Below, in pieces: positions 45,837-55,522 of a stretch of 64,000 bases of DNA. The stretch lies in the NCBI GenBank assembly GCA_965279525.1, contig CBDIIB010000005.1, forward strand, positions 704,001 to 768,000, written 5' to 3'. Source of the stretch: Tagaea sp. Its GTDB lineage: Bacteria > Pseudomonadota > Alphaproteobacteria > CACIAM-22H2. Numbering within the stretch: the first letter of the stretch is position 1; each line of letters starts with the position of its first letter. The notes beneath the pieces were generated by a model. It was not told the DNA's origin, made no database searches, and saw nothing but the letters and a program-made list of their open reading frames with translations. The translations under genes were made by a program, and so were the position numbers.

Positions 45837-47879
45837 TTAGGGCCTCGGACGACGATCCGGATCGTTCTTCCCGATCGTGAAATTGTTCCGCAGCGCCCCT
45901 TTGTCGTGGAGTTCCTTGCGATCCATGACCCGGAATTCCTTTGGAATGTCCTTCCGCGGATAGAAGCGCGTCGGCATCCCCCGCAGCGAGAGCGGCTTAA
46001 TACGGAAGAACGTGCAACTTCCGACGATAAGGTCGGGATGGATTTTTCGACCGGGCTGCTTATCCTCATAGGTCCGCCGCAGCTTGTTCTGCGAGATGTA
46101 CTGCCGGTCGAACGCGTCGAGATCCCCCGTGAGGACACGCGCTGCAGGCCCGCCATGCAGGTCGCGGTATTCCTGCAAATACCCATCGCGAATTAGTGCT
46201 GAGACTGCTGTCTTATCGACCATCAGCCGCTTGGCAACCTGTTCCAGAGAGTGGGTCGGATTTTTGATCCCCATCTCCGCGTAGGCCCATTTGTGGGCAC
46301 TATCCCGATCGAAGATCATGCGCTCAAGGAGGTTGTGCTCCTCGGGATCGAACTTGATCGGGATCAGCTTCCCGCTCAGCACCGCGCTCACGACGGTCGA
46401 CCACGGATAGTCGACATTCTTCTTCAGCATTTCGACGACGACCTTCGTCGTGACCTGGGTGCCCGAGATGAGCATGGGGCGGACACTCGCCTCGAGTGCC
46501 GTAGCGATGGCGTCAATCTCCGCGCGCCGGTATAGCGCCTTAGCCATGCCGACCAGACGCAGGTACTCCGGCTCCACCTGCTTGAGCAGGCCGCTGTCGC
46601 ATAGATCGGCCACGACATCGTGCCTCAGGCGCCATTCTCCCCGGAGGGTTCGCGCGGAGATCATGCTCTGTAGGGCCGACATCACCTCATCGACCTTCTT
46701 CCGGCTGATCCGGAGAGGCGTACCGCTTCCCTGCCCCTCGGACAGCAGAACACCGGGGAATTTCAGGAGCTCGGTGATCCGTCGGTGGCTCCAGCCGTAC
46801 TTGGCCTTCACGTCCCGGAGCATGATGCCGTCGGAAACGTCCCCGACGGCTTCGGCCAGCGGGGTACCGGCTTTCAGGGAGATTTCGGGATGTGCCTCGA
46901 GAAAGGACCGGACGGCCGGAACGACCACGGCCCAGATCTCAGCTTCTGCACTCCATTCCCGCAGCAGGATCTGGAAGTAGCCGAATGCCTTCTTGGTCCC
47001 GTAGGCGCCAGCCCGCTCCTCCGAGATCATCTTCTCCTCCTCCAGATAGCCAAGGAGGGCATCCGGCCAGCCCGTGGCGATCTGGTAGGCGTGCAGCACG
47101 GCCTGGGACCAGTCGAGATGCGTGGTCCGGTGTCCCGGCTTCCTGGGCTCGATCAAGCGATCGACCGCGTTCTTTGGCCTCCGAGCGGCCTTCTCCTCGT
47201 CCATGCCAGCGGCCAGCGAGAACACGAACTTGAAGAGCCTACCGGTACCAAGATCCCGGATCTCGGGTGCCAGAGCCTCGCTGGCAGCCTTGGCCCGCTC
47301 GGGATCGAGGGATACGAGGTCGGCAAGCCCGGCAATCGCCACCCGGGTATCTTCGTCGACCTGATCGGGGGCCCCCGCCGCGATCGGCTCCCCACAGGCG
47401 TGGCAGGTCAGGAAGTCCGACTTGCCCCAGGAGAACTCAGTATCGCAGTGCGGGCAGGCCCCGATCAGACGCTCACCGTTCGCCGGATCGGCGATGACGA
47501 AGGTCAGGTCCCAGGACATCCGATGAATGCCCGTCGCTCTGAAGTCATGGGGTGCGATCCGGGGTGAGCCCCCGGAGAACACCGCCCGCTCGATCCAGTT
47601 CCCAGCGAAGCAGACCAGACTGACGAACTCCGGGACCGCCTCATAGCGACGCCGATCCAGCTCGGCTTTGGACACACCCAACCGCGCTGCGACTGCCTCC
47701 AGGCCGGCCCCCGTCCGGTGGAACTCAGACAGGCTGCGGGCTTCCGCCTCCGTCGCCGGGAGGATCGAAGACGGCCCCGGCAGTACGAGATCCTTAGCGA
47801 CGCGAAGGAAGTAGCCGTTGAGGCTCTCGTCCGGCTGCAGAGAGAGCGTGATGGAGAAGGCGGTCGTGATCTTATCCAT
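45837..47879 (-). CDS. tniQ: TniQ/TnsD target selector
   Basis: PDESLNGYFLRVA N-terminus, CPHC/CHAC zinc ligands and a long HTH-rich C-terminus; fourth gene of the tns operon. Confidence 0.85.
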   Translation of the reverse strand: MDKITTAFSITLSLQPDESLNGYFLRVAKDLVLPGPSSILPATEAEARSLSEFHRTGAGLEAVAARLGVSKAELDRRRYEAVPEFVSLVCFAGNWIERAVFSGGSPRIAPHDFRATGIHRMSWDLTFVIADPANGERLIGACPHCDTEFSWGKSDFLTCHACGEPIAAGAPDQVDEDTRVAIAGLADLVSLDPERAKAASEALAPEIRDLGTGRLFKFVFSLAAGMDEEKAARRPKNAVDRLIEPRKPGHRTTHLDWSQAVLHAYQIATGWPDALLGYLEEEKMISEERAGAYGTKKAFGYFQILLREWSAEAEIWAVVVPAVRSFLEAHPEISLKAGTPLAEAVGDVSDGIMLRDVKAKYGWSHRRITELLKFPGVLLSEGQGSGTPLRISRKKVDEVMSALQSMISARTLRGEWRLRHDVVADLCDSGLLKQVEPEYLRLVGMAKALYRRAEIDAIATALEASVRPMLISGTQVTTKVVVEMLKKNVDYPWSTVVSAVLSGKLIPIKFDPEEHNLLERMIFDRDSAHKWAYAEMGIKNPTHSLEQVAKRLMVDKTAVSALIRDGYLQEYRDLHGGPAARVLTGDLDAFDRQYISQNKLRRTYEDKQPGRKIHPDLIVGSCTFFRIKPLSLRGMPTRFYPRKDIPKEFRVMDRKELHDKGALRNNFTIGKNDPDRRPRP

Positions 47880-47881
47880 CG

Positions 47882-53066: not shown

Positions 53067-53074
53067 AACCCCAC

Positions 53075-55522
53075 TCAGACGTCGAGGTTCGCCACCTTCA
53101 GCGCGTTCTCGACGATGAAATCGCGACGGGGTTCGACGACGTCGCCCATCAGCGTGGTGAACACGCCGTCGGCGTCGGCCGTGTCGGCGACGCGCACCTG
53201 CAGCAGGTGGCGGGCCTGCGGGTCGAGCGTGGTCTGCCAGAGCTGCTCGGGGTTCATCTCGCCCAGGCCCTTGTAGCGCTGGAACGAAAGACCCTTCTTG
53301 CCGACCTCGAGCACCGTGTCGATGAGCTTGATCGGCCCCGCGACCTCGACCGTGCCCTTGTCCTTGGTCTCGAGCTTCGCGCGCTTGGCGTAGAGCGTCT
53401 GCAGCTCGCCCGCCATCTCGACGAGGCGGCGCGCCTCGATCGAGTTGATCGTCACCTGGTCGATCGTGGCGCGGTCGATCTCGCCGCGCAGGCGGCGTTC
53501 GAACACCAGCCCGTCGGGGCCGCGCATGCCTGTCCAGCCGCGCTCGGTTTCCGGGCTCAGCACGTTGAGGCGCTTGGCGATGAACTCGGCCACCGCCTGT
53601 GCCTTCTCGCCATCGGCCAGCAGCGACGGATCGAGCGCACCCAGGATCGCGGCCTGCTCGACCGCGTCGCGCGAACCCACGCGCCGGGCGAGTGCGAGGA
53701 TCATCATCTTGGCCGCGCGCGCGCGCTCGACCGCACTGCGCAGGTCCGGGCCCGCGCGCATCGCACCATCGGCCCCGGTCAGCGTCATGCCCTCGATGCC
53801 GCCGGCGATGAGGTAATCCTCCATCGCGCGTTCGTCCTTGAGGTAGACCTCGGACGAGCCCTTCTTGACCTTGTAGAGCGGCGGCTGGGCGATATAGATG
53901 TAGCCGCGCTCGATCAGTGCGGGCATCTGGCGGTAGAAGAACGTCAGCAGCAGCGTGCGGATGTGGCTGCCGTCCACGTCGGCGTCCGTCATGATGACGA
54001 TCTTGTGGTAGCGCGCCTTCTCGACGTCGAATTCCTCGGTGCCGATGCCCGTCCCGATGGCGGTGACGAGCGTGCCGATCTCGGCGGACGACAGCATCTT
54101 GTCGAGGCGCGCGCGCTCCACGTTCAGGATCTTGCCCTTGATCGGCAGGATCGCCTGGTTGGCGCGGTTGCGGCCCTGCTTGGCCGAGCCGCCGGCGGAA
54201 TCGCCTTCCACGATGAAGATCTCGGACTTGGCCGGATCGCGCTCCTGGCAGTCGGCAAGCTTGCCGGGCAGCGAGGCCATGTCGAGCGCGCCCTTGCGGC
54301 GCGTGAGTTCGCGCGCCTTGCGCGCCGCTTCGCGCGCGGTCGCGGCCTCGACGATCTTCTGCACGATGCGCTTGGCGTCGGCCGGGTGCTCCTCGAACCA
54401 TTGCTGGAGCTTGTCGTTGCAGATCTGCTCGACGACGGGGCGCACCTCGGAAGAAACCAGCTTGTCCTTGGTCTGCGAGGAGAATTTGGGATCGGGCACC
54501 TTGACCGAGAGCACGCAGGTGAGCCCCTCGCGCGCGTCGTCGCCGGTCAGCGACACCTTTTCCTTCTTGCCCGCACTCTCGCCCGCGATGCGCGCGATCG
54601 TGCGCGTCAGCGCCCCGCGGAAGCCGGCCAGATGCGTGCCGCCGTCCTTCTGCGGAATGTTGTTGGTGAAGCACAGCATCGTCTCGTGATAGGCGTCGGT
54701 CCACTCCAGCGCCACCTCGACGGTCATGCCGTCCTTCTCGCCCTTCATCGTCACGGGCGCGTGCAGCGCCTGCTTGGAGCGGTCGAGATACTTCACGAAC
54801 GCCTCGATGCCGCCCTCGTAATGGAGCTCGACCTTCTTGGGTTCCACGCCGCGCTCGTCGGCAAGCACGAGGCGCACGCCCGAATTGAGGAAGGCGAGTT
54901 CGCGCAGGCGGTGCTCGAGCGTGTCGTAGTCGAACACGGTCTTGGTGAAGGTCTCGGTCGAGGGCAGGAACGTGACTTCCGTGCCGCGCTCGTCGCCGGC
55001 CGGGCCGACCTCGGCGAGCGGGGCGACCGCCTCGCCGTGGCGGAACTGCATCTGGTAGGCCTTGCCCGAACGCCAGATGCGCAAGGTCAGCAGCGAAGAC
55101 AGCGCGTTGACGACCGACACGCCCACGCCATGCAGGCCGCCCGAGACCTTGTAGGAATTCTGGTCGAACTTACCGCCGGCATGCAGCTGGGTCATGATGA
55201 CCTCGGCCGCCGACACGCCTTCTTCGGCGTGGATGTCGGTCGGGATGCCGCGGCCGTTGTCGCGCACCGTGACCGAGCCGTCGGCGTTGAGCTTCACCTG
55301 GATGGCGTCGCACCAGCCGGCGAGCGATTCGTCGATCGCGTTGTCGACGACCTCGTAGACCATGTGGTGCAGGCCCGTACCGTCGTCGGTGTCGCCGATA
55401 TACATGCCCGGGCGCTTGCGCACGGCGTCGAGGCCGCGCAGCACCTTGATGGAATCCGCCCCGTAGGCGGCGGACGCGTCTTCGATGCTCTTGGTCGGGA
55501 TCGGCTTGGCTGGGTCTGTCAT
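53075..55522 (-). CDS. gyrB: DNA gyrase subunit B
   Basis: [36 protein letters not shown] and [10 protein letters not shown] motifs; dnaN-recF-gyrB synteny. Confidence 0.98.

Follow-up and report, generated by a model that had tools for sequence, protein, structure and literature searches.

We have analysed a stretch of 64,000 nucleotides (called here the window) from a genome of Tagaea sp. (4.35 Mb, mean G+C content 0.664), which corresponds to positions 704001-768000 of contig CBDIIB010000005.1 (C5). This stretch contains the gyrB-proximal part of a Tn7-like transposon of 69,523 bp, which lies just past the stop codon of an intact gyrB gene and has its tnsA-proximal end facing that gene. 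Our analysis points to a Tn7-like element with a TnsD-type target selector of a known kind for which the 3' end of gyrB serves as attachment site, a site so far unreported in the literature that we searched, and we consider it likely that the element homes to gyrB by means of this selector.

That a TnsD-type element sits in a single orientation just past an intact gyrB was the core idea of a preliminary description of this DNA, and it is borne out by finding the arrangement again in independent elements, also distant ones. The right end faces gyrB and starts no more than 15 bp past its stop in eight genomes or contigs from two classes, the present one included (offsets of 0/3, 5, 5, 7, 7, 7, 11 and 15 bp). 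Because the DNA beyond the gyrB stop is unrelated between genomes, the coding end of gyrB is the only feature common to the insertion sites, and it lies on the right-end side, as the TnsD site does in Tn7. By analogy with TnsD of Tn7 at glmS, we propose a mechanism in which the C-terminal winged helices of the 680-aa TniQ/TnsD-like protein would bind the final codons of gyrB, which are highly conserved. The bound TniQ would recruit the TniB-type TnsC and this would place TnsA and TnsB, with insertion a short distance past the gene, in one orientation and leaving gyrB intact; cut-and-paste transposition would in this case have put the element 15 bp downstream of the gyrB stop with its right end facing the gene. 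It is also by analogy that we infer that TniQ, and not another factor, reads the gyrB sequence, as well as which bases would be read.

Ends, gyrB junction and transposition genes

The element extends from C5:687537 to C5:757059. Its right end (52900..53059, minus strand; coordinates without a contig name are those of the window) terminates at 53059 and is separated from gyrB by a spacer of 15 bp (53060..53074). The pentanucleotide ATAGA is present outside both ends (C5:687532-687536 and 53060-53064) as a perfect 5-bp target-site duplication, and it was noticed only once the left end had been placed by means of the repeat motif. Read inward on the minus strand, the right end begins with TGTCGTGAC (with TGTCGTGACTC from position 53059) and bears two direct TGAGAC-type repeats 23 bp apart, the terminal one being at 53053..53036. 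The left end, at C5:687537, begins with TGTAGCGATCC and is followed by three direct CAGAG-AAGTGAGATTC-type repeats in the plus strand. Both termini are of the TGT...ACA form, and 17 of the first 25 bases are common to the left and right ends when these are aligned by eye. A repeat pattern derived after the ends had been seen matched 6 times in the window, against an expectation of 0.75, and two of these matches are in the right end. A BLAST search with the last 195 bp returned a single 19-nt match at C5:687624, which is one of the left-end repeats and lies at the left G+C boundary. The right end also matches that of two related elements described below (in the genomes G041 and G047), with the same distance of 13 nt from TGT to the first repeat. 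The inner right-end repeat is inverted and stands some 115-130 bp from the tip both here (52925-52946) and in G047 (near 3039237), unlike the end sites of Tn7, which are all direct.

According to this, the end repeats and the orientation of the tnsA-proximal end towards gyrB that had been seen in the preliminary description were confirmed, with two sites plus the inverted inner one in the right end and three in the left end, and the far end that it proposed to search for was located 16.46 kb to the left of the window, the element preceding the window start by that length. As for the right terminus, an end at 53066 (8 bp past the stop) with AACCC as the duplication had been preferred, and we rejected it because no left end fits it, whereas the alternative offered at the time, an end at 53059 with ATAGA, proved to be right, as ATAGA recurs before the matching TGT end at C5:687537. 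Between the right end and tnsA there is a 90-aa open reading frame (ORF) at 52476..52748 (minus strand) that has no Pfam or PADLOC match. A promoter scan of 51800-53150 gave nothing beyond chance, with one weak promoter-like site (52311..52283, minus strand), and the same region has five weak terminator-like sites, all of them in the plus strand.

The gyrB gene (53075..55498, minus strand; stop codon TGA at 53077..53075) is intact and its product contains five GyrB Pfam domains. The ORF is open up to 55762, where there is a TTG start, and similarity to the relatives begins near 55498. Over residues 3-807 the protein shares 87% identity with its counterparts in two congeners, and its last 30 residues are the same in all 18 genomes of the genus (this one and 17 congeners) apart from two substitutions and with no insertion or deletion; at the DNA level the 3' end of the gene varies in the genus mainly at third codon positions. 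Upstream of gyrB we identified recF (55539-56627) and dnaN (56707-57837), both in the minus strand, through their similarity to Azospirillum genes. The G+C content in 1-kb bins is 0.64-0.73 everywhere to the right of position 53000 and 0.50-0.65 everywhere to the left. The undamaged gyrB, its dnaN and recF neighbours and the drop in G+C at the junction had all been put forward in the preliminary description, and these data agree with it.

The four transposition genes are arranged as an intact tnsA-B-C-tniQ operon in the minus strand, also as first described. TnsA (51070..51834) matches PF08722 with E=1.7e-5 and 25.8 bits, just under the cut-off of 26.5, and NF033179 with E=6.4e-15. TnsB, a DDE transposase (48943..51000), matches the Pfam rve family with E=2.6e-6, below the cut-off. 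When each protein was aligned with four homologues from other elements, E76, D117 and K133 of TnsA, which we take to be the E...D...K catalytic motif following Tn7 TnsA, and D288, D373 and E409 of TnsB were invariant in all five sequences. Between tnsB and tniQ, tnsC (47882..48925) encodes a short AAA+ ATPase of the TniB type (347 aa; PF05621, E=3.4e-36). As the catalytic columns are invariant and the ORFs are full length when compared to their relatives, the tns genes look functional, and the element is complete and, to judge from its sequence, probably still mobile.

The last gene, tniQ (45837..47879), encodes the putative selector, a TnsD-like protein of 680 aa that combines a TniQ domain at its N terminus with a Cys/His zinc finger and, in the C-terminal part, an array of winged helices (HTH_17/Xis-like). 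A Pfam scan with this protein alone yielded only a weak HTH_17 match; in the clade of 15 close homologs, PF06527 (TniQ) matches every member at E<=1 (best 5.1e-7) and HTH_17 is found in 8 of them. The zinc-finger residues C142, C145, C159, H160 and C162 are invariant in the family. When the profile of the family was compared with the PDB, the top matches were TniQ 7u5d (E=0.0054) and TnsD 8v32 (E=0.015), both of them weak. The AlphaFold model has a mean predicted local distance difference test (pLDDT) score of 65.9, and its residues from about 350 to 660, with pLDDT of 80-95, form repeated helix-strand winged-helix modules; in Foldseek searches, Xis and BldC-type winged helix-turn-helix domains were matched with a probability of 1.0 and TniQ chains with E=0.04-1.7. 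All these data indicate that the predicted protein has the TnsD-like architecture presented in PMC10293859, in which a TniQ core and a zinc finger are combined with a long tail for DNA binding. No TnsE-like gene or second selector was seen beside tniQ. A second TniQ-domain gene, with a clearer match (PF06527, 75 bits; 407-aa ORF), is present elsewhere in the same genome (C5:1197876-1198283), and this genome would therefore appear to hold another Tn7/Tn5053-type element.

Relatives of the element and their insertion sites

The close TniQ clade is small. A word-indexed search of 5.8 billion proteins recovered the 15 members mentioned above at E<=1e-5, and 11 were obtained at E<=1e-30 when 50% cluster representatives were searched. 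Among 50 genomes of the order the protein was found in this one and in 3 others, all of the same genus; a scan of genome contigs gave 2 loci, in the Tagaea sp. metagenome-assembled genomes G047 and G041, and a scan of metagenome contigs gave 1 locus whose upstream DNA was too short to show the flank. In G047 and G041 the TniQ proteins are 62-63% identical to ours and TnsB 50%, with GyrB being 87% identical, and in both of them a right end beginning with TGTCGTGTCGCGGAGATACTGAGAC starts shortly past the gyrB stop (5 bp in G047 and 7 bp in G041). The G047 element has the same orientation as ours and is 24,986 bp long, with its left end at 3014379 and a perfect duplication, GCCGC; the layout of its left end is homologous to the one described here, down to a conserved block that separates the first repeat from the second. 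G041 and G047 represent one insertion lineage, as their elements and flanks are ∼94% identical. Both carry a type I restriction-modification system (hsdM, hsdS and hsdR) between the right end and tnsA (loci L002, 1-5317, and L015). This is an unusual place for cargo, and the more distant elements of G320, G570 and G511 also have 6-14 kb there.

A separate insertion by a near-identical element is indicated by a 14,985-bp contig from a sequencing run of another study (X23), in which a right-end region ∼95% identical to ours is found next to gyrB with a different spacer that is 8 nt shorter (7 nt). Right-end-like repeats are also found directly after the gyrB stop in four more congeners (G044, G043, G039 and G037), and no end-like sequence follows gyrB in 10 of the 17. 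TnsB was detected in none of the 5 genomes of congeners with end-like remnants, which are draft assemblies, so that its absence from them is not established; the four ends are either remnants or parts of incompletely binned elements. In G039 (L047) and G043 (L048) low-G+C islands follow these repeats, the former with a two-component system and an RND/HlyD efflux system and the latter with a TetR gene and a 2-oxoacid dehydrogenase complex. No tns genes were found in them within 20 kb of gyrB, and their appearance is that of elements at the gyrB site that have decayed or were assembled only in part. The genes that flank our element on its left (M20 peptidase, GIY-YIG and NnrU) are absent from the gyrB flanks of the 17 congeners, G047 and G041. 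Lake and river metagenome runs contained a small share of the query words, and the contigs obtained from two of them (X1 and X2) cover mainly the gyrB part.

Elements with the same disposition were also found in distant hosts. A tblastn search of a plasmid collection with our TniQ matched 2 records, one of which is the replicon NZ_CP007794.1 of Azospirillum argentinense Az39. In this replicon dnaN, recF and gyrB are followed, 7 bp past the gyrB stop, by an end with TGTCGGTTG and by TnsB, TniB and a TniQ of 693 aa that contains HTH_17 and is 23% identical to ours; the same collection searched with the Az39 TniQ gave 3 records and no further full-length match. The record itself (L065, 1-5035; 1.9 Mb, filed as plasmid p1) begins with dnaN-recF-gyrB, that is, with a chromosomal replication gene cluster. 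A profile of the clade matched 4 of 401 genomes of the class, ours included, with a full-length match only in G320. In the latter, gyrB is followed by an end with TGTCGGTTG located 11 bp past the stop, then by cargo, TnsA, TnsB, TnsC and a TniQ of 672 aa, and this TniQ was found in only 1 of 44 genomes of its order, G320 itself.

To cover a sample of the phylum we used a wider profile of 25 rows (A4), which matched 42 places in 30 of 401 genomes, and 17 of these places, with long matches or long ORFs, were fetched, the other 25 being short and mostly restricted to the N terminus. Two of the 17 loci have a co-oriented gyrB upstream: in G570 the end is at +5 bp, and in G511, a genome from a different class of the same phylum, at 0 or +3 bp. 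In both loci the direct repeats at the end are paired and the G+C content falls. Another Tn7-like element, in G436 (L073, G436:C1:374000-393900, about 8816-18994), comprises TnsA, TnsB, TnsC and a TniQ of 507 aa and starts at a drop in G+C after dnaG-rpoD, which suggests that the 3' end of rpoD is the attachment site of a different TniQ branch.

We built a maximum-likelihood tree of 23 TniQ rows (6 with a gyrB context, 14 with another and 3 with no known one), from which G041, as it nearly duplicates G047, was left out together with the loci G666, G819 and G855. In this tree gyrB use is spread over several branches, one being our own clade with G047, another Az39 with G320, and the others G511 and G570. 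Either gyrB specificity would have arisen more than once or DNA-binding modules would have been exchanged.

Weighing the gyrB site against other explanations

Several observations weigh against the homing of the element to gyrB through its TniQ. With regard to the site itself, the offset varies from 0 to 15 bp, which is looser than the spacing of Tn7 TnsD from its target, which is fixed, and it differs by 8 bp between our element and the near-identical right end of X23. The left end was not found within 50 kb in Az39, nor in G041, in which the contig starts 46 kb away. In 15 of the 17 loci of the phylum sample the stretch retrieved upstream of tniQ (6.9-17.8 kb) lacks gyrB, although the cargo between end and tnsA can reach 13.7 kb (in G511) and some of these 15 loci could consequently be misclassed. 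Furthermore, the nearest outgroup TniQ, that of G042 (28% identity over residues 13-660), is encoded beside a TetR-HlyD operon, the right end of its element, TGTCGGCTGTCAGAG, abuts the start of the TetR gene and HlyD-type operon, and the gyrB of this genome is on another contig with no end-like sequence. On the TniQ tree the gyrB label requires 4 changes, at least 3 of them forced by well-supported branches, and 55 of 500 label shuffles were equally low, so that the label is not clearly clustered. As for the selector, our TniQ matches PF06527 weakly (E=0.01), the N-terminal half of its model is of low confidence, and Foldseek found no whole-chain match for it in the PDB at E<=0.001. Finally, a second copy of the gyrB end, described below, is not accounted for by Tn7-type transposition.

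The preliminary description had proposed a single selector family using a near-universal site, and our data do not support this part of it in that form: the close clade consists of 15 proteins, the gyrB-adjacent TniQs do not form one clade, the elements of G042 and G436 are inserted elsewhere, and the 15 loci just mentioned have no gyrB in the upstream DNA fetched. Tabulating the flanking genes, as it suggested, showed gyrB recurring in distant elements and absent from the DNA fetched for most of the sampled loci of the wider family. The family is rare, and use of the gyrB site is sparsely distributed, recurrent and apparently of multiple origins. That the 3' end of gyrB is a recurrent attachment site, acquired independently by several TnsD-like lineages across at least two classes, is something that we advance tentatively and with some doubt.

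The second copy of the gyrB end is at C5:686394-686410, 17.6 kb to the left of the window. It is an exact direct copy of 17 nt (53077-53093), the only other one in the genome, and corresponds to the five final codons of gyrB followed by TAG. A convergent gene for an M20 peptidase has its stop within this copy, which coincides with the far-left G+C boundary. The last two codons of the peptidase gene differ from those of its G043 orthologue, which has a different neighbour. Between this copy and the left transposon end there is only a low-G+C gene of the GIY-YIG/DUF4357 type (PADLOC PDC-S14). The simplest reading of this sequence arrangement would be that a small cassette entered the gyrB end earlier, bringing its own copy of the terminus, and that the Tn7-like element was then inserted between gyrB and the cassette. 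The gyrB terminus may in this way be a site for which different kinds of mobile element compete.

It could be thought that islands in general accumulate at the gyrB flank, a hot spot near the replication origin reached by a pathway that does not read gyrB (through a replication or termination structure, or another selector), with the target of TniQ lying elsewhere. The region downstream of gyrB does vary across the genus, with different islands and neighbours, and the GIY-YIG cassette with its duplicated gyrB end is also at this flank; the 0-15 bp range of the offsets and the polyphyly of the gyrB-adjacent TniQs would be compatible with such a hot spot as well. However, a non-specific site would give both orientations and scattered positions, and what we find in the eight genomes or contigs, which come from two classes and have unrelated downstream DNA, is the same (right) end at gyrB, no farther than 15 bp from the stop. 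Moreover, a TnsE-like gene or second selector that could serve such a pathway was not seen beside tniQ. For these reasons we regard a hot spot of this kind as improbable.

We give still less credit to the idea that the whole low-G+C block of ∼70.7 kb is an integrative island brought by a site-specific recombinase, in which the 17-bp repeat of the gyrB end would serve as att core, the Tn7-like element being a passenger or having been inserted in it at an earlier or later time. It is true that the 17-nt direct repeats (C5:686394 and C5:757077) occur exactly twice in the 4.35-Mb genome and bracket the block, and that the far copy spells the final five codons of gyrB and a stop. However, Tn7-type ends with a perfect 5-bp duplication lie inside the block and only the 1.1-kb GIY-YIG gene is outside the transposon, no integrase domain was found among the part of the ORFs that was scanned, and the repeat was not found in the fetched stretches of G047, G041, Az39, G320, G039 and G043; it is better read as the scar of the small earlier cassette. 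Nor is it at all probable that the element is an immobile fossil, vertically inherited from one old insertion, as the shared insertion lineage of G041 and G047 and the four congeners that keep only end-like remnants, with no TnsB found in the five assemblies, might suggest, since the spacers and duplications differ (ATAGA at +11..15, GCCGC at +1..5 and the 7-nt spacer of X23), the proteins of the element diverge far more than GyrB (50% identity for TnsB, 87% for GyrB), the 10 congeners noted above lack any end-like sequence at gyrB, hosts as distant as Az39, G320, G570 and G511 cannot share one insertion, and the four tns ORFs are intact with their catalytic residues.

Cargo, known systems and significance

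Homing to gyrB by a TnsD-type selector is thus the explanation that we prefer, and the element so placed carries a large and varied cargo. Adjoining tniQ there is a candidate defence gene for an AAA_13 ATPase of 791 aa (43263-45638, minus strand; PADLOC PDC-S06), which is separated by an unassigned 275-aa ORF (42304-43131, plus strand) from a second candidate, a DUF4011-helicase-MTES_1575 nuclease of 1946 aa (36365-42205, minus strand; PADLOC PDC-S37 / Hhe-like). Further cargo occupies positions 1..36357 and continues past the window start to C5:687537. According to Pfam scans of selected ORFs, the first 36 kb of the window encode TRAP and ABC transporters, an aldehyde dehydrogenase, an MR/MLE enzyme, a P450 and its reductase, FAD oxidoreductases, an IclR regulator and a DUF4236 protein. 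To the left of the window, inside the element, a nitrate reductase cluster (C5:690828-701626) contains a fused narK-like MFS gene, narG, narH, narJ and narI, together with genes for a peptidyl-prolyl isomerase, a hemerythrin and NnrS; a carbonic anhydrase, a Crp/Fnr regulator and an AAA ATPase are also encoded outside the window. The G+C content of the cargo is 0.58-0.63, compared with the genome mean of 0.664. The catabolic and candidate defence cargo agrees with what had been anticipated, but its size had been underestimated, as it is larger and includes the nitrate reductase cluster outside the window. The earlier statement that cas genes and arrays are lacking stands: no CRISPR-like array was detected by Tandem Repeats Finder (window 1-53100) or by a scan of k-mer spacing (whole element), and the scan of the cargo ORFs, which did not extend to several small ones, gave no Cas domain.

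Like the present element, Tn7 has a heteromeric TnsA/TnsB, TnsC as AAA+ ATPase and, as selector, a TniQ-domain protein in which a zinc finger is combined with a DNA-binding region at the C terminus (PMC10293859, PMC11406308). In both cases there are TGT...ACA termini, several TnsB sites, a 5-bp duplication and a right end that faces an intact, conserved essential gene. Unlike Tn7, our element is at gyrB and not at glmS, its TnsC is of the short TniB type (347 aa), no TnsE was seen, and the offset ranges from 0 to 15 bp from the stop among its relatives. The selector is also unlike TnsD, as it is 680 aa long, has Xis/HTH_17-type winged helices and is only marginally similar to the solved TnsD structure (E=0.015).

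A closer parallel is found in the parE-targeting elements (Tn7017/EasCAST and those of Acinetobacter), in which a TniQ-type protein directs insertion past the gene for a type II topoisomerase B subunit (PMC11406308, PMC11014353). The parE gene is a paralogue of gyrB, and in the present genome the last 63 nt of the two genes agree at 41 positions, including the final 12. However, our element belongs neither to the parE-targeting elements nor to the CRISPR-associated transposons, as it lies at gyrB and has no CRISPR-Cas system, and no island follows parE in its genome, where the flank is empty and its G+C content is 0.66-0.71. The selector has 680 aa here and is reported to have about 486 aa in the parE type. 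Tn6230 (yhiN), Tn6022 (comM, with TniQ and TnsF) and the nrdB- and tRNA-targeting elements are also described as having a dedicated selector for each family, as here; they differ from our element in their sites, no TnsF-like partner was seen in it, and its target remains intact, unlike that of Tn6022.

The attachment sites listed in PMC11406308 and PMC11014353 include glmS, tRNA genes, ffs, guaC, rsmJ, yciA-type genes, comM, yhiN, parE and nrdB. Our literature search returned no report linking a Tn7-like element to gyrB as a target, and the string 'gyr' is absent from the main texts of PMC10293859, PMC8649781, PMC11406308 and PMC11014353; these counts refer to the main texts, and the supplementary tables of PMC8649781 and PMC10293859 may list more sites. 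In Pseudomonas putida HB3267 there is a Tn7-like transposon (B479_00025-B479_00140) whose cargo consists of genes for metabolism and transport, and which PMC4731212 does not describe as gyrB-homing. Its locus tags start after the first four chromosomal genes, which would be dnaA-dnaN-recF-gyrB, and it may be a further gyrB case that has gone unrecognised. Presumably, tns-like genes also follow gyrB in P. putida KT2440.

Tn7-like families are valued because each of them delivers large cargo into one harmless and conserved position, so that every new attachment site is both a possible tool for safe-site insertion and a case of how TniQ/TnsD specificity evolves. The gyrB gene is indispensable and practically no bacterium lacks it. 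A selector able to recognise its final codons, which are highly conserved and nearly universal, could work in many hosts and, if this is true, would allow broad-host safe-site insertion. In its 69.5 kb the present element unites a nitrate reductase cluster with genes for catabolism and transport and a pair of candidate defence genes, which illustrates the scale of what can be transferred in a single piece, and the completeness of the respiratory nitrate reductase cluster means that dissimilatory nitrate reduction is movable as the cargo of one transposon. Finally, the gyrB-using TniQ branches that stand beside branches with other sites form a natural set for mapping the C-terminal modules that set the target, and an independent acquisition of gyrB, if true, would parallel the known use of its paralogue parE.

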